Shown here: in pieces, positions 4,113-59,464 of the stretch
Layout of the letters: every line of letters starts with the position of its first letter
Position numbering within the stretch: position 1 is the stretch's first letter
The notes under the pieces: model-generated
The model's input: the letters and a program-made list of their open reading frames with translations, nothing else
Told to the model about the DNA's origin: nothing
Databases searched by the model: none
Translations under genes and position numbers: made by a program
IMG/VR virus record: IMGVR_UViG_3300045257_000499
Location: 1-62,479 of that record
DNA: 62,479 nucleotides
DNA from: a virus
Lineage: Duplodnaviria > Caudoviricetes
Strand: one strand, 5' to 3'

Positions 4113-4181
4113 GGATGGCTCCGTTGTTTGGTAGGGGTAAGGGCCGCGCGATTTGCTCGCGTCGGCCCGGCTTAGCGCGGC

Positions 4182-5831: not shown

Positions 5832-6092
5832 TCAGAGGGGATCGGCAAACTCAAGCAGAGCCCAGGCTGCCTCGCATGTTGCGTCACACGCCTTGCACCA
5901 TGCCGGGTTCGAGGTGCTTGGAGTCCCGGCGGCCAGCATGCGCGCGGCGGCGTCGCGGACTGCGGCGATCTGTTTTACGAGCGCGCGCTTCTTGGCGCCG
6001 GCGACGTGCGCCAGCTTCGTGTTGGCCATCTTGATGACGTTGGTTGGGCATACCCCGTACCAATCGAGCGAGGATCTCTGCGGCTGTTTCAT
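5832..6092 (-). CDS. Hypothetical phage protein
   Basis: 86 aa, CxxCxxxC near the C-terminus. Confidence 0.55.
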   Translation of the reverse strand: MKQPQRSSLDWYGVCPTNVIKMANTKLAHVAGAKKRALVKQIAAVRDAAARMLAAGTPSTSNPAWCKACDATCEAAWALLEFADPL

Positions 6093-8382: not shown

Positions 8383-8583
8383 GTGCGTGTTGTCTCCATG
8401 GTAGGGTCGGTTTTTAGTTGATCCCATCATTATGGGTAGTTGCCAACAGGTTTTCAAGAAGAAAATTTGTTAGCTCGCTCAAGCGCCTGCGCAAAATCGT
8501 CGCCGTCTGCTGCTGCGCACCTCTTGCGCGCGCGCACGCGCGCGACACACAAGCCCGGCCACAACGAAGAAAGAAAAACAACG

Positions 8584-9573
8584 ATGGTCTCGATCGCTCC
8601 CGCTTGCGTGATGGTGAGGGTTACCAGCCAGGGGCAAGGCCCGCTGGTGCTGGGTGATCCGATTCCCGGCAGCGGCTACCGCTCGTTTCAGGACGCGCAG
8701 ATTCAGAACGGAGCGTACATCGCCTACGAACTGTTCGAGGTCATCGGCAATGGCGTCCTCCAGCGCGAGCAGTCGAATGGCGTCTACGACGCTACGGTGG
8801 GCACGGTGACGCGAGAGGTCGACGCCTCGACCAACGGCGGGCAGCCGATCGCGCTCCAGGGCAACGGCGTGCTGCGCATGCAGTTCGGCCCGAGGGATTT
8901 GAAAGCCATCGACGGCGGGATCTTGGACGCGGTCGACAACGCCGACACGCCAGCGATCCTTGCGACGATTCAGCTGTTACGCTCCTCGACGCCGGGTCAC
9001 GCGCCGACCACGCTCGTGCCCGGGCAGATCGCCATCAACTCCGCCGACAGCATTCTCTATTGGCCGGACAAGGACGGCCATGTGCAGAACGCGCACCTGC
9101 TCGACGTGGCGGACATTCCGAACCTCGTTGAGCGAGTGGCCGCTCTCGAAGGCGAGGTGTCAACCCTCAACACCGAGATGGAGCAGGCGCAGGCCGACAT
9201 CTTGAGCCTCGATAATCGCGTGGCAGCTCTCGAGGCGCTGGGTTCGGTGGTGAAGGTCACGCCGGTCGCCTCGACGGAGACTCTCACGCTCGACGCGCGC
9301 ACCAAGCGCGTCATCGGTTTTGCCTGGGGCGGCAGCGCCGGCACCGATAGCGACAGCCCCGGCGGCGCGGGCGGCAACACCATGGTTGGCTCCTTTGTGA
9401 CCGCCCTCGGCGGCACGTCAAACGGCGCGCGCGGCGCGTTTGCGGTCGGTTCGGGCAGCGTCACCGGTGGTTCCGGCCTCACGGTTACGATTGGCGCCGG
9501 GGGCACGGCTGGTGGCGGCGCTGGCAGTCCAGGCGTCGCGGGCGGCGCGCTCGTCGTCGAGCTGAGTGCGTAG
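8584..9573 (+). CDS. Tail-fibre-like virion protein outside the tail module
   Basis: Segment similar to the N-terminus of fibre 46547, coiled coil, Gly-rich C-terminus. Confidence 0.65.
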   Translation: MVSIAPACVMVRVTSQGQGPLVLGDPIPGSGYRSFQDAQIQNGAYIAYELFEVIGNGVLQREQSNGVYDATVGTVTREVDASTNGGQPIALQGNGVLRMQFGPRDLKAIDGGILDAVDNADTPAILATIQLLRSSTPGHAPTTLVPGQIAINSADSILYWPDKDGHVQNAHLLDVADIPNLVERVAALEGEVSTLNTEMEQAQADILSLDNRVAALEALGSVVKVTPVASTETLTLDARTKRVIGFAWGGSAGTDSDSPGGAGGNTMVGSFVTALGGTSNGARGAFAVGSGSVTGGSGLTVTIGAGGTAGGGAGSPGVAGGALVVELSA

Positions 9574-9674
9574 AGTTACCAACAGGTTCGTCGCGTACCC
9601 CCTTGCACATGCTGGGGGAGTCATCGCAAAAGCAGCACAACGAACAAACAAACAATCGTGAAGTAAGCGACTAC

Positions 9675-9748
9675 CCGCCCGTCGTCTAGTGCCAGGACAC
9701 CGATTCCCTCGGATCGGGACGCAGGTGCAAACCCTGCCGGGCGGCCCA
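9675..9748 (+). tRNA. Atypical tRNA-Glu-like cloverleaf (8-nt anticodon loop, TGCAAAC T-loop)
   Basis: CCGCCCG/CGGGCGG acceptor plus C-CCA; GTCTAGTGCCAGGAC D arm; CCGAT/ATCGG; GCAGG/CCTGC. Confidence 0.65.
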
Positions 9749-9770
9749 TCCCCTACCAAGGAAGACGGCC

Positions 9771-9929
9771 GTGGGATTTGCGGCGAAGCAGGTGTACGGC
9801 CCTGATTCCCCGGGCCACAAGCGCCGACAGCAAGGCACGACGCTGACCAAGGTCAAGGCGATGATTCGCGAGCGCACGTCGTCGCGTCGCGAGATGGTCA
9901 ACCTCGGCCTCCTCGGGAACAAGCGGTGA
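9771..9929 (+). CDS. Small basic protein (52 aa, absent from ORF track)
   Basis: GTG start with AAGGAAG RBS and CCCTACCA upstream. Confidence 0.5.
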   Translation: MGFAAKQVYGPDSPGHKRRQQGTTLTKVKAMIRERTSSRREMVNLGLLGNKR

Positions 9930-9999
9930 TCCGGAGACTCATGGCCTTGCCGGCGCTCTATCGCTGGCTGCGCGACTTCGTCGAGGACGGAGCGCGCTG

Positions 10000-10563
10000 A
10001 TGGCTATCGGCGGTCACCACTCGCCAACCTCCAAGTCCGTCGACTGGCTCACGCCGCCGCGAATCATCGGGGCGCTCGGCAAGTTCGACCTCGACCCCGC
10101 GTGCCCGCCCAATATGCCGTGGCGCACGGCGACCGTGATGCTCACGCCGGAAGATGACGGCTTGGCGCACGATTGGTCGGTGTTTCCGCGCGTGTGGCTG
10201 AATCCGCCGTATGGGCAGGCAGAGGTACAGGGCCCGTGGCTGCGCAAGCTCGTGGAGCACGGCCGCGGCACCGCCCTGATTTTTGCGCGCACCGAGACCG
10301 AGCTGTTCTTCGAGTGCGTGTGGTCGAAGGCAACCGCGATCCTGTTTCTGGAGGGCCGGCTGTTCTTCCACTACGGCTGGCCGCATCACGACACCAAAAG
10401 CGGCCGCACCTACGCGGTAGGAGATCGGGCGGCGCACAACAGCGGCGCCCCCTCGGTGCTCGTGGCGTATGGCGGCGCGGACGCGGCCGCGCTCCACAGG
10501 AGCGGACTGCCCGGCCGCTACGTCCCGCTTTTCGTGACCACGCAGGTGAAGGCGGCGGCATGA
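10000..10563 (+). CDS. Phage DNA N6-adenine methyltransferase (Dam family)
   Basis: DWLTP, FDLDPA, DDGL, WLNPPYG, ARTET, GRL motifs. Confidence 0.88.
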   Translation: MAIGGHHSPTSKSVDWLTPPRIIGALGKFDLDPACPPNMPWRTATVMLTPEDDGLAHDWSVFPRVWLNPPYGQAEVQGPWLRKLVEHGRGTALIFARTETELFFECVWSKATAILFLEGRLFFHYGWPHHDTKSGRTYAVGDRAAHNSGAPSVLVAYGGADAAALHRSGLPGRYVPLFVTTQVKAAA

Positions 10564-10889
10564 CCGAGTTCGACGACGCGACCGAGCGAACCAAGCTCGC
10601 GCCGATCAAAATCCCCGACGAACGGCTCGCCCAGCTGAAGAGCGCGTTCGATGCGGAATCCCGCGATCGCGTCGACGGTCGCGAGGAAAAGGCCGCCGTT
10701 CGGCGCAAGGAAACAGTCGAGCAGGTCGTCATCGACCACAAGAGTCTGATTCGCGAGCTGGAGGTCGACGGGCTCGAGGAAATGACGGTAGAGCAACGCG
10801 ATTACGTCGAGCGCCAAATATCTGAGTTTATGGAGAAAATGACGACGCGGACAATCTTCGGCCTGTCCGTAACGGGGGGAACCGAATGA
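10560..10889 (+). CDS. Hypothetical protein
   Basis: ATGA-coupled, MTEFDDA... Confidence 0.65.
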   Translation: MTEFDDATERTKLAPIKIPDERLAQLKSAFDAESRDRVDGREEKAAVRRKETVEQVVIDHKSLIRELEVDGLEEMTVEQRDYVERQISEFMEKMTTRTIFGLSVTGGTE

Positions 10890-11405: not shown

Positions 11406-12890
11406 ATGGTCGCCCGCCAGCAACTCGGGGACATCTTCCTCGGCATCACGCCCGCGGCAATCCGCTCCTACATGCTCAAAGCCTTCCAAGGCGCCAAAGC
11501 CTCGGGACGCTATGACCGCGTCGTGATTCCCTGCGCCGGCCGCTTCACCATTGCCGAGGCAGCCATCGATGCAGGATGGAAGCCCGAACAGATCGAGTGC
11601 TCCGACATCTCCCTGTTCTCCACCGTCCTCGGATACGCCTGTGCCGGGAGGGACTTGGAAGAATTGGGCGTGACGTTTCACGACCATTTGCAACATCTTC
11701 ACGCGCGCGCGCGGGCGCGAGGCGATTTGAGCCTGTTGCCGGCCGCGGTGCTCTACGGGCTGAAGGTCTGCCAGCTCAAGGAAGACGTGTTCTATGAGCG
11801 GATGGTGCGGGACGAGTTGCTGCGCGACCCGGACCACTACATCGCCCAGCTCGCCGAGCAGGTGGGGCAGCTGACCGAGAAGCTGAAGGGCATCCGGTAC
11901 AGCGTGGCGGACATCACGGCGGTGTGCCTGTCGGACGAGAGCGATCCGAGGGCGCTGATCTACTGCAACCCCCCGGGCTTTTCCCGGGGCTACGCGAAGA
12001 TGTTCGACACCAAGGGCGCGATCACCTGGCATGACCCGCGTATCCCGGAGTTCGACGCCAGAGCATCGCGGCTCAAGCTCTACCAGCTCCTCCTCCCGGA
12101 GAGGACGCCCGCATTGACCTTCATGTTCCGGTCGAAGGCGATCGAGGAGGGTTATGGGGGCAAGGGCGTCTTCGCCGCTGAGCGGAACCGAGCGGTCGAC
12201 TACGTGCTGTGCACCCGGCCGGATGAGGCGGAAACGCTGGTCAAGCAGAGGGGCGAGACGAAGATCGCGCCGGCGAAGATTCCGTTCCTGCCGGACGACT
12301 ACGAGATCACCCCGGAGTCCAAGATCGGCTTCATCGAGGTGACGAAGAACGTCGCGCTCTACTACCGCGACCTTTTTGCGCACAAGCTGCCGGCGACGCG
12401 GACCGAGCGCTACTTCCTGACCACGCTCGACGGCTACTTGATGGCCGTGCTCGGCATGCACTTCTCCGACCTGACGATGGGGAAGTCGACGACGGTGCAC
12501 GAGACGTTCGGCTTCACGGCGCCGAACAAGCGTTACCCGCGAATCAACCATCTGTTCATGATGGCGATCACGAACGACGACGCGCGCAAGTTCTTCGGCC
12601 GCATGGCCTATGGCGCGCTCTCTGAGCCGTGGCGGTTCCAGACGACCTGCATCTCGACGACGCCCGAGCAGAAATCGCACCGCTCGACCAAAATGAAGCT
12701 CATCACGCGAGAACCCTGGGGAGACGGGCGGTTCAAGCTTGTTTACGGCGGGCCGTTCCGGAAAGAGACGATGGCGGAGACGGTCGCGGCGTGGCTCAAG
12801 AAAATGCGCGCGGTCGAGAAGCAGACCGGTAGGCCGATGGGCGTGACGAAGATCCCGGACAAGCTGGTGAAGGACGACGAGGCGGCGTGA
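11406..12890 (+). CDS. Putative adenine methyltransferase-like (anti-restriction type) protein with extra C-terminal domain
   Basis: VVIPCAGRF (motif I-like), ECSD, IYCNPPGF (motif IV-like). Confidence 0.65.
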   Translation: MVARQQLGDIFLGITPAAIRSYMLKAFQGAKASGRYDRVVIPCAGRFTIAEAAIDAGWKPEQIECSDISLFSTVLGYACAGRDLEELGVTFHDHLQHLHARARARGDLSLLPAAVLYGLKVCQLKEDVFYERMVRDELLRDPDHYIAQLAEQVGQLTEKLKGIRYSVADITAVCLSDESDPRALIYCNPPGFSRGYAKMFDTKGAITWHDPRIPEFDARASRLKLYQLLLPERTPALTFMFRSKAIEEGYGGKGVFAAERNRAVDYVLCTRPDEAETLVKQRGETKIAPAKIPFLPDDYEITPESKIGFIEVTKNVALYYRDLFAHKLPATRTERYFLTTLDGYLMAVLGMHFSDLTMGKSTTVHETFGFTAPNKRYPRINHLFMMAITNDDARKFFGRMAYGALSEPWRFQTTCISTTPEQKSHRSTKMKLITREPWGDGRFKLVYGGPFRKETMAETVAAWLKKMRAVEKQTGRPMGVTKIPDKLVKDDEAA

Positions 12891-13996: not shown

Positions 13997-14162
13997 TGGC
14001 GAAGCCGTGGGGCGCCTCGGAGATGCTTCGCCGCGCGGCTGAGTGCGCGGGGAGCGCGCGCGTCACCCCCTAAACCTGTTGGCAACTTCTCGACGCGCAT
14101 GACGCGCGTCCGCGGCGCAACCTACAAGCCCGCTCGTCGTCATCGTCGTGCTGCCGCACGGC

Positions 14163-14322
14163 GGTTGCCGGGAGCGGAGACGGGGCTGCTGCCACTCAGC
14201 CCTCCGCTCCCGGCCGGCGACCAAACGCAGAGGGGAGCCTGAGGCGCGAGAGCGAACCTCCGCGCGCGTAACGACTTCCGCAGGTGGGTGAGAGAGGGGC
14301 CAACCCCTCCCGCCCGTCTGCG
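14163..14322 (+). ncRNA. Structured leader or ncRNA candidate
   Basis: Three strong hairpins in intergenic DNA. Confidence 0.45.
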
Positions 14323-15916: not shown

Positions 15917-16228
15917 GTGAGCAAACCCTCCGGCCTGCGCCACCGCGACGACAATCTCTGGAGCCGCAGTCACGCCTACCGCAAAGGCTACCACGCTGGC
16001 CGCATGGACGAGCGCGAAGACAAGATGGCGCGCCCGGTGCTGATTCAGTTTCGTTTTGAGGACGGCCGCGTGGTCAATCTCAACGAAGCTGTTGGCAACT
16101 TGGCGAAAGTTGGACTCAAGATCGTTCCGGTCGATCAGCCTGACATGCAACCCCGACTCAGAGCGGGGGAAGTCCCTACCGAGGAGACAGCATGTCGGAC
16201 ACCAAATACTACGTCGTCGGCTTCTTGA
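15917..16228 (+). CDS. Hypothetical protein
   Basis: GGAG RBS, GTG start. Confidence 0.5.
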   Translation: MSKPSGLRHRDDNLWSRSHAYRKGYHAGRMDEREDKMARPVLIQFRFEDGRVVNLNEAVGNLAKVGLKIVPVDQPDMQPRLRAGEVPTEETACRTPNTTSSAS

Positions 16229-19934: not shown

Positions 19935-20418
19935 GACCGCGCGGCGGCTCGCCAAAGCGTACGGCCGCAAGTGCTCGCGCCAAACGGTCTGGCGTCTGAT
20001 TCAAGACAACCCCGAGCTTCAGCGCATCCTGCAAGAGGTCGACGAAGCCACGCTCGACATCGCCGAGCGCACGATTCGCGACGGCGTGCTCGCCGGCGAC
20101 AAGGACGCCACCCGCTTCTTCCTGATGACGAAGGGAAAGGATCGCGGCTGGACGAAGCGTGTTGAAAGCACTGGCGCGAACGGCGGCCCGCAGCAGCACG
20201 AGCATATCCACAGGGTCGCGCACCAGACTCCACCCGGCTTCCTCGAGAGTCTCTCGCCGGACGAGTTCGAGGCTTACTGGGCTTTGAAAGAAAAAGAAGC
20301 GGCATTCAATGCAGCCCCACCTCAACCAGCCCCAAGCCTACCGGCCCCAGCCGACTCAGGCACCGCTCCCGCGGTCGCACCTGACCGAGATGGAGCTGGT
20401 GAGGACAGAGAGGGCTGA
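19801..20418 (+). CDS. Second small-terminase-like HTH protein
   Basis: HTH then GD..AT.FFL..KGKDRGW..RVE.TG..GGP; immediately precedes TerL. Confidence 0.7.
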   Translation: MTEQSQLPATTPPEDNKRPVPIRRPFWTLEKVKPVLIATAGSAAETARRLAKAYGRKCSRQTVWRLIQDNPELQRILQEVDEATLDIAERTIRDGVLAGDKDATRFFLMTKGKDRGWTKRVESTGANGGPQQHEHIHRVAHQTPPGFLESLSPDEFEAYWALKEKEAAFNAAPPQPAPSLPAPADSGTAPAVAPDRDGAGEDREG

Positions 20419-21952
20419 GCGGAAGCTCAACTTCTTCATCCGTGAAGGCTGGCGCTATGTCGAGCCGGCGGCGTTCTCGTCGAACTGGCACATCGACTGC
20501 ATGTGCGAGCACTATGAGGCGATCGCACTCGGTCAGCTCAAGCGCGTGATTTTCGTGTTGCCGCCGCGGCACATGAAGTCGCTCGGCGGCAACGTGTTCT
20601 TTCCGCCGTGGGTCTGGGCGCAGGACCCGGAGCGCCATCCGATCAAACGGGAGCTGATGAATCACGGCTTCCAGGTCACCCCCGGGATGTTCCGCGGCCC
20701 CGGCGTCAAGTTCGCCTACCTCTCCTATGCCCAAGATCTCTCCAACGAGCATTCGGTCAAATCTCGCCAGCTGATCGACTCGTCCTGGTATCAGGAGCGC
20801 TGGGGGCATCGCTTCAAGCTGCGCGACGACTCCAATCGCATCACACGCTTCGACACCATCGAGGGCGGCCACCGCCTGGCGCTGGCGTTCGGCGGCAAGA
20901 TCACCGGCTTCGGCGCCGACATCATCAACATCGACGACGCGCACAACATCAAGGACGTCGAGTCCGATCCGGTGCGCGAGGAAGTGCTCCGCGTCTGGGA
21001 CGAGGTGCTACCCACGCGTTTGAACGATCCGAAGACCGGCGTCTTCATCGTCTCGATGCAGCGGTCGCACCCGCGAGACCTCATCGGCCATATCCTGGCG
21101 AAGGACGGTGCCTATCACTTGGTCGACGTCTCCGAGCGCAAGAGTTGGACTGTGGTGTGCTTGCCGGCGCGCTACGAGCCGGACCACCCGACGCCGTTGC
21201 GCACCCTCACGGTCAACTCGAAGACCGGGCATCCGTGGCAGGACCCGCGCGCGCCCGGCGAACCGTTGTGGCAAGAGCGGTTCCCCGATGACGTGCTCGC
21301 CGACTGGTTCAAGAGCATGACGTCGCACGCCGCGGCCGGGCAGCTCCAGCAGCGTCCGACCGCTCGTGAAGGCGGCATGTTCAAGAAACACTGGTGGGGC
21401 GCGCCGGTCACGGCTGCGCCGGCGGCGGCTTCGTTCAACCGCGTGCGCGCCTGGGACTTGGCGGGCACGGAGGAATCAAACAAGGCGGACCCGGATTGGA
21501 CGGTCGGCGCACTCATGTCACGCGATCCGACCACCAACATCATCTACATCGAGGACGTGATTCGCTTCCGCGGCACGCCCGGCGAGGTCGAGAAAAACAT
21601 CCTCGCCGCGGCCGGGCGCGATACGCGCGCAACCCGCATCCGCCTTCCTCGCGATCCCGGACAGGCCGGCAAGTTTCAGGTTGCGCATCTCGCCGGCAAG
21701 CTCGCCGGCTGGATCGTGCATCCGGAGTCGGAATCGCAGGGCAAGACGGTGCGCGCCGAGCCCTACGCGGCGCAAGTCGAGGCCGGAAACGTCAGGCTCG
21801 TGGCGGGTCCGTGGAATGAGGAGTTCGTCAACGAGCACGCGGCGTTCCCCAACGCACATCACGACGACCAAGTTGACGCGTCGAGCGGCGGCTTCCGTGT
21901 CCTGTGTTCGATCCCGCAGCAAACTCTCACCGGAACCATGAGTCAGCACTAA
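20309..21952 (+). CDS. Terminase large subunit (start may be 20390)
   Basis: LPPRHMKS Walker A, INIDD Walker B, MQR, RAWDLA, HDDQVD. Confidence 0.93.
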   Translation: MQPHLNQPQAYRPQPTQAPLPRSHLTEMELVRTERAERKLNFFIREGWRYVEPAAFSSNWHIDCMCEHYEAIALGQLKRVIFVLPPRHMKSLGGNVFFPPWVWAQDPERHPIKRELMNHGFQVTPGMFRGPGVKFAYLSYAQDLSNEHSVKSRQLIDSSWYQERWGHRFKLRDDSNRITRFDTIEGGHRLALAFGGKITGFGADIINIDDAHNIKDVESDPVREEVLRVWDEVLPTRLNDPKTGVFIVSMQRSHPRDLIGHILAKDGAYHLVDVSERKSWTVVCLPARYEPDHPTPLRTLTVNSKTGHPWQDPRAPGEPLWQERFPDDVLADWFKSMTSHAAAGQLQQRPTAREGGMFKKHWWGAPVTAAPAAASFNRVRAWDLAGTEESNKADPDWTVGALMSRDPTTNIIYIEDVIRFRGTPGEVEKNILAAAGRDTRATRIRLPRDPGQAGKFQVAHLAGKLAGWIVHPESESQGKTVRAEPYAAQVEAGNVRLVAGPWNEEFVNEHAAFPNAHHDDQVDASSGGFRVLCSIPQQTLTGTMSQH

Positions 21953-21962
21953 GAACAAGAAG

Positions 21963-23612
21963 ATGAAAAGAACTCGCAAGGTCAGCAAGCGTGACGGCGT
22001 CAAGAACGTCACCCCGGTCCAGGGACCATTCGCGCAAGTGGCGGGCGACAAGCTCGTCGAGCTCGGCGGCGATCCCTCCGTCCCGTCGCTCGCCTGCGTC
22101 GCGGCGCTGCCGGATTGGAGTTTGATTCGCGACATCCTCGGCGGTGCGCGCACGATCCGGCTCGCCGGCGAAAAGTATCTCCCCAAGTTCCCGAACGAGA
22201 GCGACAAGGACTACGACTTCCGTGTTCGGTTTGCTCCGTTCGTCAATCACTTCAAGGACAGCGTCGGGACGGTCGCGTCGAAACCGTTCTCCAAGGAAGT
22301 GTCGTTACAGGGCAACGTCACGGAAGAAATGAAGGAGGTCGCTGAGGACATCGACGGGCACGGCACTTCGCTGCACAAGTTCGCGCGCGACGTTTACGAA
22401 GAATCAGTGGGCTTCGGCGTTACCGGCATCCTGGTGGATTTCCCCCAGCTCACGCAGGGTATGACGCTGGAGGACGAGCGCCGGCTCGCGCCGCGCCCAT
22501 ATTGGGTGTGGTATCGCCCGGAGGACATCATCGCGATGTTCACGGAGTTCCGGGCAGGCCGGCGCTATGTGACGCACGTGCGCCTGCGCGAGGACGCGGT
22601 ACGCCGCATGGGCTTTACCGAGCGCCAAGTGAAGCGCGTGCGCGTGCTCGACGATGACGGGCAGGGCACCATCACCTGGGCGCTGTGGGAGATGGCCGGT
22701 ACCGGCTGGAACCTGCTGGGGCAAGGCCCGATCACCCTCGACGAAATCCCGTTCCGCCTCGTCAAGTTCGGCAGGCGCGAGTGGTGGACGAATCACACCA
22801 TCCCGCCGATGGTCGATCTCGCGCATCTCCAGATCGAGCACTATCAGCAGAGCTCGAACCTCAAGCACGTGCTCAACCTCACCGGCTTCCCGATGCTCAC
22901 GGGCGATGGCGTGCAGGCGCCGGTGGACAAGGATGGGAACCCGCAGAGCATCAAGGTGGGTCCGCACGTCGTGTTGTTTGCCCCGCCCATGCCTGGGATG
23001 ACCACGTTCCCGCAGTGGCGCTTCATCGAACCGACAGCGCAGAGCATCAAGGCGCTCCAGGATCAGATCGAGAAGATCGAAACGCAGATGGCGAAGATCG
23101 GCATGCTGCCGCTGATTCGCAACAAGGGCGGCATCACCGCGACGACCGAGGCGACCAACTCGGCGAAGGCGCATGCGTCCGCGGAAGCCTGGGCCTCGGA
23201 CGAAAAGGACATGCTCGAGCAGTGCTTCGTCTTCACGGCGAAGTGGCTCAGGCAGAACCCGAAGACCGCTCCCGAGGTCTATATCCACACCGACTTCGGC
23301 GTGGAGTTGCGTGAAAACGCCGAAAACACCGAGCTCATGTCCGGCGCCAAGATCGGCGCCATCTCGCGCAGGACGCTGTGGAACGAGTGGCAGCGCCGCG
23401 GCTTCCTCGGCCCGCAGTTCGACCCGGAGGAGGAGGAGAAGCAGCTCGCGAAGGAACGCAAGGACGGCGTCGATCTCAATCCCGACCTCACGGCCAAGAT
23501 CGTCGGCCGCAACGCGAGCGGCAATACCTGGGATGCCCGGCCGAGCAAAGACTCCGGCGCGGCGGGCGACGTCGAAAGCCAGCGCAAAGACCGCGCACTC
23601 GCGTCCGCGTGA
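21963..23612 (+). CDS. Portal protein (DUF4055-like)
   Basis: Follows TerL; YLPKFP.E...Y..R, ILVD.P, RPYWV motifs. Confidence 0.88.
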   Translation: MKRTRKVSKRDGVKNVTPVQGPFAQVAGDKLVELGGDPSVPSLACVAALPDWSLIRDILGGARTIRLAGEKYLPKFPNESDKDYDFRVRFAPFVNHFKDSVGTVASKPFSKEVSLQGNVTEEMKEVAEDIDGHGTSLHKFARDVYEESVGFGVTGILVDFPQLTQGMTLEDERRLAPRPYWVWYRPEDIIAMFTEFRAGRRYVTHVRLREDAVRRMGFTERQVKRVRVLDDDGQGTITWALWEMAGTGWNLLGQGPITLDEIPFRLVKFGRREWWTNHTIPPMVDLAHLQIEHYQQSSNLKHVLNLTGFPMLTGDGVQAPVDKDGNPQSIKVGPHVVLFAPPMPGMTTFPQWRFIEPTAQSIKALQDQIEKIETQMAKIGMLPLIRNKGGITATTEATNSAKAHASAEAWASDEKDMLEQCFVFTAKWLRQNPKTAPEVYIHTDFGVELRENAENTELMSGAKIGAISRRTLWNEWQRRGFLGPQFDPEEEEKQLAKERKDGVDLNPDLTAKIVGRNASGNTWDARPSKDSGAAGDVESQRKDRALASA

Positions 23613-27077: not shown

Positions 27078-27154
27078 AGCAGGGTAGAGCAGCCTGGTAG
27101 CTCGTCTGGCTCATAACCAGAAGGTCGCCGGTTCAAATCCGGTCCCTGCAACCA
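27078..27154 (+). tRNA. tRNA-Met(CAT), initiator-like
   Basis: fMet-like body, A1:A72 mismatch, CTCATAA loop, ACCA end. Confidence 0.93.
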
Positions 27155-34589: not shown

Positions 34590-34905
34590 CTCCCCGCGAC
34601 TCTCTCTCCAGAGGCGCGGACACGCCGGACCCCCGGGGCCCGGCGTTTCTTCTCTCTGAGGTGAGAACAGCCTCCTCACGCGCGGTGTGACAGCCGTCAG
34701 TAGCGATGGCGCTCGAATCGGCGCCCGCGAAGTGATGCCGGCGTCGGCGCCCGGCCAGAGAGAACCCCTTTTCACCCGTCTCCATGGCGGACCGTCGCGG
34801 CGAGCGATGCTCGCGCGCGCGGCTGGAGCCTGTCCAGCAAACAGGTAACCGCGGCCGAGCGCCGCCCGCTGCCGGACGGCCTCCGGTCACCGAGGCGACG
34901 CCTCA
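34590..34905 (+). ncRNA. Structured leader upstream of scaffold, with H-type pseudoknot
   Basis: Multiple helices; GCTGGA/TCCAGC with CCTG/CAGG. Confidence 0.45.
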
Positions 34906-34923: not shown

Positions 34924-35748
34924 GTGTTGAAGGCCATTGTCGACTCCATCGACGACCTCCCGGAACCGATCAAGGCGCTCTACAAGCAGATCGAAGACGA
35001 AGGCGACCTCAAGGGCAAGTGGCTGCTCCAGGTCGAAGGCGTGAACGGCTTCTCCCTCGAGGATGTTGCGGGGCTGAAGAACGCTCTCGTCGCGACCAAG
35101 GGCGAGCTCGAGCAGGCGAGGGCCGCCGTCGACGGTTTCAAAGGACTCGACGCCAAGAAGGTCCGGAAAGACCTACAAGAACTCGAGCGTCTCAAGAAGC
35201 TCAATCCGGAGACCGAGGCCGACCGTCTGGCCGAGGCCAAGATTGCCGCTCAGGTCGAGGCGCTTTCGCAGCAGCACGCGACCGAGATCGAAGTGCGCAA
35301 CAAGCGCGAGACGACCCTTATGGGCGAGATCAACCGCGTCCTCGTCGACAACGAGGCGCGCGCAGCCATTCTCGAAGCCAAGGGCGTTCCCGAGCTTCTG
35401 TTGCCGACGATGAGGTCGCGGCTGAAGGTCGTGGAGACCGATGGGAAGTTCGGCGTGCAAGTGCTGAACGACCGCGGCAATCAGGACTACGTCGTGAAGG
35501 GCGGCAACACCGTTCCTTCGACCATTGCCGACCTGGTCGCGAAGTTCAAGGCGGACCCGAAGTTCGGTCGTGCCTTCGATGCTTCCGAGCGGTCGGGTGG
35601 CGGCGCGAACCCTCCTGGCCAGGGTGGCGGCGGCCGTCCGAATCCGTGGGCCAAGGACACCTTCAACCTTACCGAACAGATGAAGCTTCTTCGGAGCGAT
35701 CCCGCGCTTGCGGCTGCGATGAAGCAGCAAGCCGGCATCACCAGCTGA
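34924..35748 (+). CDS. Capsid scaffolding protein
   Basis: Coiled coil, C-terminal NPW.K..FNLTEQ; precedes MCP. Confidence 0.8.
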   Translation: MLKAIVDSIDDLPEPIKALYKQIEDEGDLKGKWLLQVEGVNGFSLEDVAGLKNALVATKGELEQARAAVDGFKGLDAKKVRKDLQELERLKKLNPETEADRLAEAKIAAQVEALSQQHATEIEVRNKRETTLMGEINRVLVDNEARAAILEAKGVPELLLPTMRSRLKVVETDGKFGVQVLNDRGNQDYVVKGGNTVPSTIADLVAKFKADPKFGRAFDASERSGGGANPPGQGGGGRPNPWAKDTFNLTEQMKLLRSDPALAAAMKQQAGITS

Positions 35749-35828: not shown

Positions 35829-36797
35829 ATGGCCGACATCGGTCAAACCGTTCTCGCGGACGTGATCGTCCCCGAGGTTTTCGATAAGTACGTCCAGGTC
35901 AAGACGACCGAGCTGTCCCGCTTCCGACAGTCGGGCATCCTCGCCGACCTAACGACGCAGCTCATGCCGCAGATGGGCGGCACGACCGTCAACATGCCGT
36001 TCTTCGACGACCTGACGGGCGACGCCGACATCGTCGACGACCAGACTGATCTGGCCGTGAACTCGATCGGCACCGGTCTCGACGTCTCGGTGAAGCTGTA
36101 CCGCGCCAAGGCGTTCGGCTCGTCCGACCTCGCCGCGGACCTCGCCGGCGCCGACCCGATGGCCGTCATCGGCGATCGCTTCGCCGCGTTCTGGGTGCGT
36201 CACGAGCAGCACACGTTGCTTGCGGCCGTGGCCGGCCAGATCGGCGCGGTGAACGAGAACATCCTCGACATCTCGAGCCTCGGCGGCGCTTCGGCGAACT
36301 TCGACCCTCACTCCTTCATCGACGCGTGCGGCCTGCTGGGAGACCACCAGGACGCGCTGGCTGGCGTGGCCGTCCACTCGGACACGTACAAACAGATGAA
36401 GAAGCAGGATCTCATCGATTTCATCCAGCCGTCGAAGGAAGGCGAGGAGATCCCGGTCTATCAGGGCAAGTTCGTCGTCGTCGACGACACCATGCCCAAG
36501 TCTGGCGGCGTCTATACGACATACGTGTTCGGTCCGGGCGCCGTCGGCTACGCGACGGCTTCGCCGAAGCGTCCCGTCGAGCTGGAGCGCCGTGCGCTCA
36601 TCGGCGGCGGCACCGAGTACCTGGTGCATCGTCGCTGGTTCTGCGTGCATACGCGCGGCGTGAAGTGGCACCCGGCGAATGGCGTCCCCGCGAAACCGAC
36701 TCCGAGCAATACCGAGCTCCAGGACCCGGGCAACTGGTCGAAGGTCTACGACCACAAGCTCATCCGCGTCGTCCAGTTCAAGCACAAGCTCGGCTAA
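35829..36797 (+). CDS. Major capsid protein
   Basis: T.LADVIVPEVF, NMPFF.DL, DLA..LAG.DPM; position. Confidence 0.9.
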   Translation: MADIGQTVLADVIVPEVFDKYVQVKTTELSRFRQSGILADLTTQLMPQMGGTTVNMPFFDDLTGDADIVDDQTDLAVNSIGTGLDVSVKLYRAKAFGSSDLAADLAGADPMAVIGDRFAAFWVRHEQHTLLAAVAGQIGAVNENILDISSLGGASANFDPHSFIDACGLLGDHQDALAGVAVHSDTYKQMKKQDLIDFIQPSKEGEEIPVYQGKFVVVDDTMPKSGGVYTTYVFGPGAVGYATASPKRPVELERRALIGGGTEYLVHRRWFCVHTRGVKWHPANGVPAKPTPSNTELQDPGNWSKVYDHKLIRVVQFKHKLG

Positions 36798-43190: not shown

Positions 43191-45803
43191 ATGGAAAAGA
43201 CGGTCATCTTCCGCGACTATCAGGAACAGCAAAGCGCCGACCACAACAACATCCAGGTTTACGCGCGCGCGTCGTTCGACGATCTGGTCAACGACGCGGT
43301 CACGGCCACGCTGCGTTACTCGGGCTTCGCGGTTACGAGGTCGAACCAGGCCGAAATCACGATCGGCCCGGGTCGCTTCTACGGCAAGAACGTGAACGGT
43401 CAGGTAGGCGCGGTCTACTCGCTGCCCGTGCAGACCGTGGAATCGATGGTCCAGTACCTTGCGGCCGCGTCGCAGCGCATCGTCACCGTCGTCGCCTATG
43501 GCAACGAGGATCAGGTCGACGTCCAGACTCGCGATTTCCTCACCAACGTCACGACCGGCCAGACCGAGCCGCAGGCGATCGCGATGACCGACTCGCGCGA
43601 TGCCGTTCTGGCCATCGTTCAGGGTGCTGAGGGTGCGGACCCGCAGCCGCCGGCGATCGCGACGACGCAGGTGGCGATTGCCAACGTACTGCTCGACAAG
43701 AACGGCGTGGTGAGCATCACGCAGCTTACGGCAGGCTTGGTTTCCTCCACCGAGGGCCTCAATAACCGCCTTATTAGCGTCGAGGAGTTCGACGCGCAAA
43801 TTGCGCCGCGCGTGGCGGCGCTTGCCGCCGACCTGGCGGCGCTCGCCAACAAACTCAACAAGACCGGCCAGCAGGGCGACATCATCGCCATCTATCAGGA
43901 CTTGGCGAAAGTCAAAGAGAAGGTGGGCCTGCCGGAGTCGTACTCGCAGTACGGCGCGGACTACTTCATGTGGCCCGACCCGTCGCAGAGCGACCTGAAC
44001 AACTCGCAAGCGCTCGGCTTCAACGCGCTGGTCGAGGAAGGCTGCCGTTTCCCGTCGCAGAACGCCAGCACGTTCGCGCTGAGCCTGTTCAACACGCTCG
44101 ACCCGAACGCGGCCTACAGCAACGGCCTGCTGCTGCCGGCCTACGATTCGGTGCTCAAGCTGGAGACCGGCGCATACAACTCGTCGCTCACCATCGGGCA
44201 GTACGGCTTCCAGACTTACAATCTGGTGCAGAAGGAGATCGCCTACTCGCGCATTCGCGACGGCGGCTCCTACACCGTGTGCTCGAACGGCGTGACTTCA
44301 TTCACGCCCGGCGATACGACGGTCGCGTGGTGGCTCCCGAACTTCTCGACCTACGAGACCTCGGAAACGACGGTCGTCGAGAACCTTCCGGGCCACTACG
44401 TCACCAAGACCCAGTATTTCTGGCACGACTCGTGGAACGAGCCCTACTGGGAGCTCGACACGATCAACCATACCATCAACGGGGCGCAGGTCGCGCAGAC
44501 CTTTCTCGCCTCGAGCGATATGTGGGTGACCAAGCTCGGCATCTATCTCACGAGCGTTGCTTCGGCGACCGACGTGTGGCTGTCGCTGACCAAGGTGGTC
44601 AACGGCGTCCCCGACCTCAAGCAGGTCGTCGCGCACGTGAATATCCCGGGCGCGTCCCTCGTCCAAGGCTGGAACGAAATCGCGGTTGTGCCCGCTTTCC
44701 TGTCGAAGGGCGACCGCATGGGCGTGGTCGTCACTTCGGCGGCGAACCATGGGCTCGGCATGGCGGCCGGGGGCTCGTATCTCGACGGCACGTTCATGTA
44801 CAGCACCGATGGTGCGTACTTCTTGGGCGATTTGACGAAAGAGATGATGCTGCGCGTCTACTCGGCGCAGTTCCGTAGCTCGCAGGTCACCATCGAGTTC
44901 GGCGCCATCAACCTCCAGGGCGGAATCCGCGACATCGACCTGACGGCGCGGATGATCCTGCCGCCTTCGTGCCAGCTCGTGTTTGAAGTTTTGCCGGATG
45001 GGACGGGCACGTGGCTGCCGATCACTGAGGACAGCCCGCTCGTGCCTTTTGCGAACGCGCCGGTGTTGTGCCGCTTCCGCGGCCGCTTCATCGGCACGCC
45101 CGCCATTGCGCCCGGCATCGTTCTGCCAGACTCGATCTGCAAGATTTGGTGCCCGGGCCCGACATTCCGGCATATCTCGGAAGTCGAGACGCTGAGTGCC
45201 TCGACGATGAATCTGTCGGTGCAGGCGGTCGTCGAGAACTTCAATCCGGTCGCTCACACGCTCGCCATCTCCATCGATGGCCCGGTGGCAGCGAAGGGCT
45301 CGATTACGTTCACGTTGAACCCCGCGAACGGCACGACCATCACGCTCGGCGGCACCGCCGTCACGTTCGTCAACAGCGGAGCGACCGGCAACCAGGTCAA
45401 CATCGGCGCGAGCCTCGCGGCGACGCTGACCGCGCTTCAGACGCTCTTGGCTTCCTCGGCCGACGTGAACATCGTCAAGTGCGGTTACACGACCACATCG
45501 ACGGTCCTCAACGTCACGTACAAGGGCCGCGGCACGGCAGGCAACTCGTTCACGCTGGCGACGACCGTCACGGGGGCCACGGTCTCCGGGGCGACGCTGT
45601 CGGGCGGTGCGGCGGTGGGCAACATCGCCGCCACGTCGACCACCACGACCTTGGTCGATGCCTCGAAGGGTCAGTACAAGATCACGGCGAACTTCGTTCC
45701 GACCGTCAATCCGATCTCGACCTTCTCGATCCAGATCGACGGCACGACCAACTCCGTCGCCAACACGTTCCACGTCGCCCAGCGGTTGTTCTGGGCGCTG
45801 TGA
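43191..45803 (+). CDS. Large baseplate/tail structural protein
   Basis: 870 aa after gpI; GAGG RBS. Confidence 0.7.
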
Positions 45804-48125: not shown

Positions 48126-49958
48126 GTGGTCACCGAATTCCGCCACGGCATCGAGATCATCGAAGTCGATGACGATATTCGTCCGATTCAGGTCGGGCCG
48201 TCGAACATCATCGGCGTCATCGGCACCGCGCCCGACGCGGACGAGACGCTGTTCCCGCTCAACGAGCCGCTTCTGATCGCGGGCGATCCGCGTCAGGCTG
48301 CACTGCTCGGCACGAGCGGTACGCTGCCCGACGCCATCAACGCCATCTTTTCGGAGTTCGGCGCCGACATCGTGATGATCCGCGTCACTGAGACCAATCA
48401 GCTCATGACGCAGTTCTCGAACCTGATCGGTCTTCAGACGACTCTTACTGGCCTGTTCGCCTTCAAAAAGGCGAAAACCACCTTGGGCCTCATTCCCAAG
48501 ATGCTGATCGCGCCGGGCTTCACCGCCCAGCGTCCGACCGATGGCGTCGACCACGTTCTCGTGAACGACGGCGGGGTCTTCTACAACCCGGCGACGACGC
48601 AGGTCTCGTTTTCCGGCGGGACCGGCCAGGGCGTCCAAGGCAAGGTGTCCGTGATTGCGGGCTCCGTGTCCGCCATCATCATGGTGCACAGGGGCTTCGG
48701 CTTCGGCTTTACGCCCCCGACCGTCACCATCACGGACACCTCGGCGCTTGCCGCGAAGGCCACGCTGACCTTCGCCGCCCAGCCGTCCAATGGCGATACG
48801 GTCACCATGGACGCGAAGACCTACACCTTCAAGACCGCGCTCACTCCGGCGGCGAACGAGGTGCTGATCGGCGTCGACGTTGCGGGGAGCATCGCGAACC
48901 TCGTCGCGGCGGTCACGGCCGGCGCCGGCGCGGGCACGGTCTATGGCGCCGGCACCACGGCGAATGCGACCATCGCGGCCGCCGCCGGTGCGACCGGCAC
49001 GCTCGTCGCAACTGCGAAGACGGCGGGCCAGGCGGGCAACGCTCTCGCCACCACGAAAACCAGCGCGAACCTGAGCTGGGACAATCCAACGCTCTCCGGC
49101 GGTCAGGGCGGCTCCGGCGCGGTGTGCACGGCGGTGCTCGGCACCGTGGCGAACCCGGTCGTCACCAACATGCTCACCGTTTGCCAGGACATGCGGTCGA
49201 TCATGATCGTTGACACGCCCGGCACGAGCTACGTCGACGCCATCTCCTACCGCCAGGACTTCGACAGCCAGCGCCTCTGGCTGGTCGAGGGCGGCGTGCA
49301 GGAGTTCGACGTCATCTCCTCGAGCGTCGTTCCCGCGCCCGTGGCTGGCTTCCTCGCCGGCAAGCAGGCGTACATCGATCAGACGCGCGGGTTTTGGTGG
49401 TCTGCCTCGAACCAGCCGCTCAACGCGGTGGTCGGCGTCAACCGGTCGATCGACTGGTCGTTCACCAGTTCCACCGTGGAAGGCCAGCTCCTCAACTCGT
49501 TGGGCATCGCGGTAGTGGTGCACGAGGACGGCTTCCGCGTCCTCGGCGTCGAGTCGCCCACCAGCGACTCGCTGTGGAAGTTCATTTCCGTCCGTCGCAC
49601 GGCCGACATGGTCTACGACGCGATCGAGGAAGCGCTCCGCATCGCGATCGACCGTCCGATCACGCTCGGCACGATCGACTTCATCGAGGGTTCGGTCAAC
49701 GCGTTCCTTCGGTATCTCGCCAACCTCGGCGCGATCATCGACGGCCGCGCGTGGCTCGACCGCACGATCAACTCCCCGACCCAGCTTCAGGCCGGGCATC
49801 TGGTGATCGACTTCGACCTCGAGCCCCCGGCGCCGTTGGAGCGGCTCACGTTCCGCGCGCACCGTAACGCGGGGTACTACACCGAGGTCATCGACTCCGT
49901 CCTCCTCAACGCGTCGACCGGGACGAGCGCGACGGCCGCGGGCCATCCGGCGCCATAA
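48126..49958 (+). CDS. Contractile tail sheath (P2 FI-like) with inserted domains
   Basis: F.HGI, IG.IGTAPDA, LIAPG, GFWWS.SN, FISVRRT.D. Confidence 0.93.
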   Translation: MVTEFRHGIEIIEVDDDIRPIQVGPSNIIGVIGTAPDADETLFPLNEPLLIAGDPRQAALLGTSGTLPDAINAIFSEFGADIVMIRVTETNQLMTQFSNLIGLQTTLTGLFAFKKAKTTLGLIPKMLIAPGFTAQRPTDGVDHVLVNDGGVFYNPATTQVSFSGGTGQGVQGKVSVIAGSVSAIIMVHRGFGFGFTPPTVTITDTSALAAKATLTFAAQPSNGDTVTMDAKTYTFKTALTPAANEVLIGVDVAGSIANLVAAVTAGAGAGTVYGAGTTANATIAAAAGATGTLVATAKTAGQAGNALATTKTSANLSWDNPTLSGGQGGSGAVCTAVLGTVANPVVTNMLTVCQDMRSIMIVDTPGTSYVDAISYRQDFDSQRLWLVEGGVQEFDVISSSVVPAPVAGFLAGKQAYIDQTRGFWWSASNQPLNAVVGVNRSIDWSFTSSTVEGQLLNSLGIAVVVHEDGFRVLGVESPTSDSLWKFISVRRTADMVYDAIEEALRIAIDRPITLGTIDFIEGSVNAFLRYLANLGAIIDGRAWLDRTINSPTQLQAGHLVIDFDLEPPAPLERLTFRAHRNAGYYTEVIDSVLLNASTGTSATAAGHPAP

Positions 49959-53435: not shown

Positions 53436-53864
53436 ATGAGCGGCAACGACGTGCTGCTCGCGCTGGGCCCCTTCGCTTTCTACGCCACGGCGCCGAGCTT
53501 CGAGAAGCTGAAGTTTGCCGCAGACTTTCGTTGGGAGGGGCAGAAGCGACTCGGCAGAGAACCCGCGCAGCAGTTCCTCGGCCCGGGTGAACGCGATGTG
53601 CACATCGAAGGCGTGATGTATCCGGAGGCGTTCGGCGGCGCCGAGCTGCTGACCGCGATGCACGCGGCCGCGCGCAGCGGCGCGGTCTATCCGCTCATCG
53701 CCATGTCCGACGCCGGCTTTGCGGGGCAGGTGATGGGCCTCTGGGTCGTCAAGAACCTGGAGAACACGCGACAATACTTCGGGCGCAACGGCGCGCGCAA
53801 GATCGATTTCGACATTCACCTACGGTCCTACGGCGAGGACGGAATCACCGGAGGGCTGTTCTGA
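53436..53864 (+). CDS. Tail protein GpU-like
   Basis: LALG.F.F, R.G..PA.QF.GPG, G.WV. Confidence 0.9.
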   Translation: MSGNDVLLALGPFAFYATAPSFEKLKFAADFRWEGQKRLGREPAQQFLGPGERDVHIEGVMYPEAFGGAELLTAMHAAARSGAVYPLIAMSDAGFAGQVMGLWVVKNLENTRQYFGRNGARKIDFDIHLRSYGEDGITGGLF

Positions 53865-59362: not shown

Positions 59363-59464
59363 TTCCCTGTTGGCAACTCGGCCCGCAAGGGTTGAGTTGC
59401 CCCGGGTCTCTCCGCCATAGTCCGGACCAACAAAGAACGATCCCTACCAGCGAGACGACGGAGC

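Follow-up and report, generated by a model that had tools for sequence, protein, structure and literature searches.

A 74-nt element at positions 9675 to 9748 of the phage record IMGVR_UViG_3300045257_000499, whose complete length of 62,479 bp is referred to here as the window, is very probably a genuine tRNA-derived gene that has been kept by selection. It combines the body of a tRNA-Glu with an anticodon loop that is expanded to 8 nt and lacks U33, and it is probably a working RNA. Its structure, its Glu ancestry, the persistence of its loop in a second sample and the selection on a near-identical loop elsewhere are directly supported. The reading put forward here, tentatively, is that of a specialised Glu-type tRNA that could still be charged.

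Anatomy and ancestry of the element

All 21 stem positions of the element are paired (Table 1), in agreement with the first-pass annotation of this DNA, which was made from the letters alone and described a perfect 7-bp acceptor with an encoded CCA, a Glu-type D arm and intact 5-bp anticodon and T stems. U8 follows the acceptor strand and A26 stands between the D arm and the anticodon stem, while A14, A21, the G53-C61 pair, T54, C56, A58 and the CCA are all present. The anticodon loop, UCCCUCGG, is 8 nt long, with a C in place of U33 and a G after CUC. It can zip through one U-G and one C-G pair into a 7-bp stem capped by a CCUC tetraloop, and reading and folding alike upheld the earlier description of a loop without U33 that contains CTC and is able to close to 4 nt. 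The minimum free energy (MFE) and centroid structures of the 74 nt are both cloverleaves with the zipped loop (MFE -32.6 kcal/mol, z = -1.59); in a 201-nt context only the anticodon and T arms are stable, and that fold (z = -0.43) is uninformative.

Like a canonical tRNA-Glu(CUC), the element has the usual cloverleaf dimensions, a short variable region, CUC in the loop, the encoded CCA and a D helix composed of G10-C25, U11-A24, C12-G23 and a U13-G22 wobble, so that the D helix typical of Glu tRNAs is retained together with a variable region of only 3 nt. Unlike it, the element has an 8-nt anticodon loop without U33, G37 instead of A37, a variable region that is shorter still, a 7-nt D-loop without G18-G19, G55, C1-G72 and C73, every loop thus departing from those of canonical Glu tRNAs. 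It does not conform to the canonical elongator, with its 7-nt loop, U33 and purine at 37, nor to the elbow built from G18-G19 and Psi55-C56, given a D-loop of AGTGCCA and a T-loop carrying G55. The identity set recognised by E. coli glutamyl-tRNA synthetase (GluRS) comprises an augmented D helix, U35/C36/A37, G1-C72 and U2-A71; the element departs from it in C1-G72, C2-G71 and the G after CUC, although the GluRS of the host may differ. As a quadruplet loop it offers 8 nt and CCUC followed by G, but C replaces U33.

With relaxed thresholds (-ps, 95%), ARAGORN called exactly this interval as tRNA-?(Arg|Glu)(cctc) of 74 nt. The same setting gave three extra calls in the window, two of them inside coding regions, and a mean of 0.2 calls on each of 40 shuffled windows; by itself, the relaxed call is weak evidence. 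The Rfam family RF00005, searched against positions 9665-9758, scored 33.1 bits where the gathering score is 29 (E = 6.8e-06), and the hit spans 9675-9745 or model positions 1-71. The family was silent on the whole window at the gathering threshold and on a 401-nt search. Since it exceeds the cut-off on 94 nt, the silence at 401 nt and above is a loss to the speed filters (default and 'evalue' filters) and not an absence. The lesson for annotation is that the element is overlooked in routine mode by ARAGORN at its default and by filtered Rfam alike.

A comparison set of 99 distinct ARAGORN-called tRNAs (113 before deduplication) was drawn from the fetched phage loci, and in global alignment the four nearest to the element were all tRNA-Glu. 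The two best, a tRNA-Glu(ttc) from L025 and a tRNA-Glu(ctc) from L036, both have a 7-nt D-loop and a G55 T-loop, and their anticodon loops measure 7 nt. On these sequence grounds, the element is confirmed as Glu type and tRNA-Glu-derived. The first-pass annotation had held that homologues with normal 7-nt loops would mark it as a recent pseudogene; the nearest bodies do have such loops, while a separate phage family, described below, keeps a loop of 8 nt.

The first-pass annotation had also called the T-loop, TGCAAAC, non-canonical. Its G55 is real, but it is no isolated oddity. A scan of viral contigs for the Glu D arm followed by GGTGCRANNCC returned 13 loci, and among the 96 distinct tRNAs of these loci 13 have GTGCRA T-loops with G55, distributed over the Lys, Arg, Thr, Ser, Met, Pro and Glu isotypes and found in the tRNA arrays of large phage contigs (L025, L026, L029, L030/L034 and L036), in a sample that is skewed to phages holding at least one such tRNA. 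The G55 tRNAs carry AG in place of the D-loop GG (10 of the 13 clearly, the remaining 3 being ambiguous where the slice enters the D stem), whereas GG is found in the D-loop of 73 of the 74 U55 tRNAs. Because G55 tracks with the D-loop AG, it is, judged by this distribution, part of a coordinated variant of the tRNA elbow and not a sign of degeneration. The D-loop of the element has neither GG nor AG, which leaves its elbow atypical even within the G55 variant. No account of a G55/A18 tRNA variant was found in the literature. The staphylococcal tRNA-Gly used for peptidoglycan synthesis has UGC in place of T-Psi-C in its T-loop, and thus shares G55 with the element, but it is cellular and of Gly type. 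As G55 occurs across many isotypes with normal anticodon loops, it appears on its own to be no marker of a non-ribosomal tRNA.

An invariant 8-nt loop in unrelated phages

Two pattern scans, in which the Glu D arm and either CCTC or CCCTCRG at the loop position were fixed, led to a lineage of five IMG/VR contigs (L041, L042, L048, L050 and L052), four of which are rated 100% complete at 64-73 kb. The window's large terminase (TerL) matched only one of these five records, at 32% identity, and the phages are thus unrelated. Each of the three genomes that were read whole contains two tRNA-Glu-like genes, which lie side by side in G001 and G004 and are separated by 1.8 kb in G003, and these are the only tRNAs that ARAGORN found in the three complete genomes. 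Seven distinct genes from four contigs were aligned; the second copy in G003 was set aside, as were two in L052 that have the same sequence as the L042 genes. Their 8-nt loop, CCCCUCAG, is invariant across all seven, whereas 10 of the 21 stem pairs have changed on both sides, including 4 of the 5 in the anticodon stem. Altogether 96.6% of the alignment cells are paired, a value reached by none of 500 shuffles and to be compared with 29-50% in slid controls. Since the loop has stayed invariant amid such strong stem covariation, this pattern provides good evidence that an expanded Glu anticodon loop is selected in at least one phage lineage. Like the element, the L041-type genes are phage-borne and have a Glu D arm, CCA, a 5-bp anticodon stem and a loop of the form Y-C-C-C-U-C-R-G; MAFFT aligned the element's loop column for column with the CCCCUCAG or CCCCTCAG of this family, and two L041-type genes scored 33.7 and 40.7 bits with Rfam as against 33.1 for the element. 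No paper was found in the literature on the L041-type genes or on natural phage tRNAs with 8-nt loops.

The element itself recurs in a second soil sample, taken in a different study (run X2), on a contig that covers 531 nt (9506-10037) at about 97.5% identity and differs from the window by 13 substitutions and one deletion. Only one of these changes, C9692T in the D-loop, falls inside the element; the 8-nt loop has the same sequence as in the window, free of any indel. Because this contig, from a separate sample, keeps the element, the latter is no assembly quirk. Further relatives were sought along several routes. The exact pattern of D arm and T arm had no match in viral contigs, and the window contains no second copy or direct repeat of the element. 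BLAST searches of phage and plasmid sequences matched the element only in short pieces of 21-41 nt (E 0.2-9), four of the phage matches falling under annotated tRNA-Lys. A search with the neighbouring methyltransferase recovered two viral loci at 46-50% identity and two metagenome loci at 46% (L022 and L003 being one and the same stretch of contig), and ARAGORN at -ps90 found no tRNA-like element in the two viral loci; for the 494-aa and 377-aa neighbours, neither search yielded a confirmed locus. A pattern scan of genome contigs returned 97 loci, all of them chance matches except L112 and a partial one, L118.

Other remodelled Glu-type bodies were encountered in the course of the scans. A short anticodon arm capped by a tetraloop, with clean acceptor, D and T arms, is present in L029 (ACAC), L033 (GACG) and L038 (GUCC), and the L029 body belongs to an array that also holds a normal tRNA-Glu(ttc) and tRNA-Glu(ctc). 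Less convincing are the fragments in L024, L027 and L032, in L028, and in L031 and L035. The only cellular example in the genome-contig scan is a tRNA-Glu(ctc) of Acrocarpospora pleiomorpha NBRC 16267 (L112:3979-4055), with the loop CCCUCGG, again without U33, on a 6-bp anticodon stem that includes an A-A mismatch. Its host being a cultured actinomycete, it could offer a tractable relative of the phenomenon.

Genomic setting

The window is the complete IMG/VR record, in which it is labelled a provirus; its GC content is 64%, and CheckV puts completeness at about 51%, so that about half of the phage lies outside it. The runs listed with the region are soil metagenomes only, with no RNA run among them. 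Recognisable structural genes (Table 1), together with baseplate proteins, identify the phage type as myovirus-like. The terminase is about 35% identical to that of the closest cultured phages and a search with the major capsid protein gave 18 IMG/VR loci, all at 42% identity or less; by these comparisons, the phage is without close kin in IMG/VR.

Table 1. Coordinates of the element, its flanking motifs, neighbouring and structural genes, and the comparison genes in other contigs (window positions unless a contig is named)
Feature	Position (strand)	Remarks
tRNA-Glu-like gene	9675-9748 (+)	74 nt including discriminator C and CCA; ARAGORN -ps, Rfam RF00005, MFE fold
Acceptor 5' strand, CCGCCCG	9675-9681 (+)	7/7 Watson-Crick pairs with 9738-9744; C1 instead of the usual G1
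D arm, GTCT-AGTGCCA-GGAC	9684-9698 (+)	Glu-type; U13-G22 wobble in stem; 7-nt loop without GG
Anticodon arm, stem CCGAT/ATCGG	9700-9717 (+)	8-nt loop TCCCTCGG at 9705-9712
Variable region, GAC	9718-9720 (+)	3 nt in the ARAGORN drawing; 1-nt deletion in the Rfam alignment
T arm, GCAGG-TGCAAAC-CCTGC	9721-9737 (+)	G at position 55
Acceptor 3' strand, CGGGCGG	9738-9748 (+)	with discriminator C and encoded CCA
Operator-like motif TTACCAACAGGTT	9576-9588 (+)	87 nt upstream of the element
Operator-like copies	8440-8452 (+), 9576-9588 (+), 14073-14085 (-), 16086-16098 (-), 59364-59376 (-), 45757-45769 (+)	
Leader motif CCCTACCAAGGA	9751-9762 (+)	with Shine-Dalgarno-like AAGGA; 2 nt past CCA, 8 nt before GTG 9771
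Leader copies	2862, 4125, 5447, 6447, 8395 (-); 9751, 14324, 16174, 57443, 59442, 60186 (+); 53528 (-)	
377-aa open reading frame	8440-9573	upstream of the element; without Pfam match
52-aa open reading frame	9771-9929 (+)	first downstream; GTG start at 9771; GC content at third codon positions (GC3) 0.83; without family match (Pfam, PHROGs)
Dam-like methyltransferase	10000-10563 (+)	Pfam/PHROGs
DAM-like-phage1 and GNAT-phage-like protein	11406-12890 (+)	Pfam/PHROGs
Large terminase	20309-21952	
Portal	21963-23612	
Major head protein	35829-36797	
Sheath	48126-49958	
Tape measure	51051-53414	
Tetraloop Glu bodies	L029 ~5960-6035; L033 ~1365-1435; L038 c8795-8864	
L041-type genes	L041:44-219; L050:8354-8517; G003 c10710-10786, c12557-12634	also L042, L048, L052

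The element sits among phage genes within an intergenic gap of 198 nt. Farther downstream of the genes listed in Table 1, the plus strand encodes a Nudix hydrolase, a dCMP deaminase and a ParB-like protein. The Dam-like methyltransferase open reading frame (ORF) covers only positions 53-212 of a 345-position PHROG profile; an ORF in another frame (10173-10889) overlaps it and extends to the next gene, no ORF passing the GC3 filter covers 10564-10885, and the gene at 10000-10889 (+) could be split in two or frameshifted. Aminoacyl-tRNA transferases are among the proteins with a GNAT fold. A link between the GNAT-domain neighbour and the element found no support, as PF22559, found in the window, is absent from all 10 of the other phage records with Glu-like variants; a sequence search of the PDB with this neighbour gave nothing useful.

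At its default, ARAGORN called only a tRNA-Ser(cga), a tRNA-Met(cat) and a tRNA-Gly(gcc) in the window, at 25.3-27.8 kb. All three have an encoded CCA and are packed tightly between ORFs. The tRNA-Met(cat) at 27078-27154 (+) has an unpaired A1-A72 atop its acceptor stem, where a mismatch marks bacterial initiator tRNAs. Elsewhere in the window, a skipping-rope RNA (Rfam RF02924, 46.7 bits against a cut-off of 36.7) occupies 34651-34763 (+), just upstream of the ORF 34924-35748, which itself precedes the head gene.

The flanking operator motif and leader mentioned by the first-pass annotation were both located. The operator-like 13-mer, TTRCCAACAGGTT, has six matches in the window at no more than two mismatches where 0.76 would be expected. 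The copy at 8440 takes up the spacer between the two boxes of a minus-strand, sigma-70-like promoter (TTGAAA-17-CATAAT), and the copy at 9576 is oriented opposite to those at 14073, 16086 and 59364, which precede plus-strand operons. No promoter for the element was located. The leader motif CCCTACCAAGGA occurs 12 times at no more than two mismatches, against 1.8 expected, about 6-17 nt upstream of start codons, the copy at 53528 having no start in the 40 nt inspected; it may be a phage-specific signal for translation or processing. Strong hairpins precede the copies at 4125, 5447, 14324 and 16174, but the 45-mers upstream of the 12 leaders are no more structured than the genomic background (Mann-Whitney p = 0.25), and hairpins as a general feature upstream of the CCCTACC leader were dropped on that account. 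The 10-mer CCCGCCCGTC (9674-9683), which consists of the 5' acceptor strand of the element and flanking bases, is found again at 14309-14318, where it lies 4 nt upstream of a CCCCTACCAA leader and forms the 3' strand of a long hairpin; the recurrence may be coincidental or may reflect a common origin of the two leaders.

Weighing the role of the element

The transcription, processing, charging and biological role of the element are matters that we infer, and they can be pictured as follows. The ancestor would be a phage tRNA-Glu(CUC), and its descendant would be transcribed with an early DNA-modification operon comprising the 52-aa ORF, the Dam-like methyltransferase and the DAM-like/GNAT protein. 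RNase P would cut at C1 and 3' processing would take place at the encoded CCA, as for the three canonical phage tRNAs, and the downstream mRNA would be left starting 1-2 nt before the CCCUACC-AAGGA leader. The released body would keep U11-A24, the U13-G22 wobble and the short variable region, with its elbow a form of the phage G55 variant, while the anticodon arm would have been remodelled into 5 bp and an 8-nt loop, UCCCUCGG, that still shows CUC. GluRS would then recognise the RNA through CUC and the D helix, and the altered loop would escape ordinary anticodon-loop recognition. Such an RNA might serve as a reader of GAG that is insensitive to host factors acting on the loop of tRNA-Glu, or as a poor decoder that acts as a tRNA-Glu look-alike.

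Several observations weigh against this reading. The element is without U33, without G18-G19 and without a 4-nt variable region; the A18-G19 of other G55 tRNAs is missing from its D-loop as well; and it has C1-G72 and C73 where the Glu tRNAs compared have mostly G1, and A73 or G73. Closure into the tetraloop would hide the anticodon. The ARAGORN check proposed in the first-pass annotation gave a split answer, for the call made at -ps disappears when the whole window is scanned at default thresholds. At the rate of change seen in run X2, a 74-nt stretch should carry about 1.8 changes, so that the single one observed is statistically uninformative, and retention of the element there agrees with constraint without being proof of it. 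The covariation among homologues that had been suggested as a further check yielded no direct evidence, as no close homologue of the element was found. The loops of the element and of the L041 family share 6 of 8 positions, 4 of which were forced by the search pattern, and the L041-type genes have canonical GG D-loops, TTCRA T-loops, G1-C72, G73 and a 4-nt variable region, AAAC, compared with 3 nt in the element, whose D-loop is also 2 nt shorter. The element, which differs from these genes in its anticodon loop, D-loop, T-loop, variable region and C73, is accordingly no member of the L041 type. In view of the forced positions, the canonical loops and the unrelated phages, the L041-type genes are on present comparisons treated as an analogue and not as a demonstrable homologue.

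The proposal of a quadruplet or +1 frameshift tRNA, the first of the functions suggested by the first-pass annotation, was examined by a scan of both strands for in-frame GAGG followed shortly by a stop in the zero frame but by continued coding in the +1 frame. In the window, no ORF pair needing a +1 shift at GAGG was found, the four candidates being ordinary gene junctions, and in the three L041-type genomes the candidates were likewise only gene junctions, with GAGG often doubling as a Shine-Dalgarno sequence. In-frame GAG is followed by G in 179 of 585 cases in the long ORFs of the window, and 107-159 times per L041-type genome, which is only mildly below the rate for GAA-G. With 179 such sites, efficient reading of GAGG would be very costly, and the proposal found no support here; a low-efficiency or context-dependent effect may nevertheless occur.

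Close behind the charged tRNA stands a non-decoding mimic of tRNA-Glu, possible though rather unlikely, in which the anticodon arm is shut (7 bp and CCUC) and the RNA works off the ribosome through its tRNA-Glu body, serving as decoy or sponge to a host or phage factor by which tRNA-Glu is bound or cut. Both predicted structures, MFE and centroid, shrink the loop to 4 nt, and Glu bodies capped by tetraloops exist in L029, L033 and L038, that of L029 alongside canonical tRNA-Glu genes. Two closing pairs, however, arise by chance in an estimated 14% or so of random 8-nt loops; the tetraloop bodies came from a pattern that fixed the Glu D arm, which leaves their frequency beyond inference; in L031 and L035 the acceptor stem does not close, and these two may be debris; and no target factor was identified. 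A pure mimic would have no need of the retained CUC, and the retention of CUC together with the Glu D helix gives the charged, specialised tRNA-Glu a slight edge. For phage tRNAs with substitutions in the anticodon loop, evasion of the anticodon nucleases of the host has been proposed (van den Berg et al. 2023, PMC10264068). The element resembles these in a loop that departs from the host type on an intact body, but it changes the length of the loop itself. The tRNAs of that proposal reportedly have 7-nt loops with point changes, and no nuclease directed at tRNA-Glu is known from the host. Very improbable is a tRNA whose CCUC reads GAGG as a quadruplet, be it for a programmed shift or to perturb host translation. 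ARAGORN does assign the 4-base anticodon cctc, classical +1 suppressor tRNAs are typified by 8-nt anticodon loops, and the L041 family provides a case of such a loop being held invariant. The sufD, sufB2 and sufJ types of suppressor are laboratory mutants of cellular tRNAs in which U33 is kept; the element has in common with them the 8-nt loop and a possible 4-base anticodon, but it lacks U33 and no suppressible site was found. Engineered quadruplet tRNAs are obtainable from all isoacceptor classes, according to one report (PMC9094753). A review that mentions the +1 suppressors states that mostly no more than three loop bases pair with the mRNA at once (PMC5009743). Against quadruplet reading stand the gene-junction nature of every GAGG candidate in the window and the three L041-type genomes, the many proteins that efficient reading at 179 sites would wreck, and the missing U33, although the scan of the window covered about 51% of the phage and a target gene could lie outside it.

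Decay is an improbable account, in which the element would be a pseudogene of tRNA-Glu(CUC) with indels in the anticodon loop, variable region and D-loop. It would explain the loss of U33 and G18-G19, the 3-nt variable region, C1-G72 and C73, the score below the default threshold of ARAGORN and the standing of the element as a singleton without homologues found. Position 26 and the last base of the variable region delimit a stretch of 22 nt, as in a normal tRNA-Glu, with the pairing register shifted by one, which could correspond to one insertion and one deletion. Neutral decay would, however, break stems too, and it is disfavoured by the absence of any mismatch in 21 stem pairs despite changes in every loop, an argument already made in the first-pass annotation and one that holds, as well as by the intact CCA. 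The element has also been kept in a relative about 2.5% diverged, with a change in the D-loop only, and phage genomes lose dead DNA fast. Distinctly improbable, too, is a function in processing or stability alone, whereby the element would be a signal for RNase P or 3' cleavage, or a 5' structure of the mRNA, and the released RNA would be functionless. Its place in the 198-nt gap, 2 nt upstream of a leader found at 12 sites, and the strong hairpins before four other leaders speak for this; but structure upstream of the 12 leaders is at background level, a cleavage signal has no need of an encoded CCA, a CUC loop or a Glu D helix, no promoter could be placed for the element, and at 9576 the operator-like motif runs in reverse to the other copies. 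A chance cloverleaf, or the attachment-site remnant of a host tRNA, can hardly be credited: the two spurious relaxed ARAGORN calls inside coding regions and the provirus label in IMG/VR are outweighed by the Rfam E-value of 6.8e-06 for an element that is full-length and not a 3' fragment, by the lack of a second copy in the window, by the surrounding phage genes, and by the absence of an integrase among the screened ORFs of the window.

Beyond the single gene, it is conceivable, albeit doubtful, that the element and the L041 genes belong to an undescribed class of phage Glu-tRNA derivatives that have an anticodon loop purposely enlarged or shut and are charged or bound like tRNA-Glu while standing outside triplet decoding; the tetraloop-armed Glu bodies may be members as well. 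If so, members of such a class could induce +1 shifts at GAG-G where the context is chosen for it, or supply decoys and substitutes in the conflict between phage and host over tRNA-Glu. Among natural tRNAs, 8-nt loops are familiar chiefly from laboratory frameshift suppressors, and further from tools engineered to read quadruplet codons. If a phage gene maintains a loop of this length, expanded anticodon loops would have a purposeful use in nature, and the case is strengthened by the unrelated lineage in which the loop is invariant and the genes bearing it are the sole tRNAs of the genome. These genes may provide natural starting scaffolds for the expansion of the genetic code, or they may represent a new move in the contest between phage and host over tRNA.

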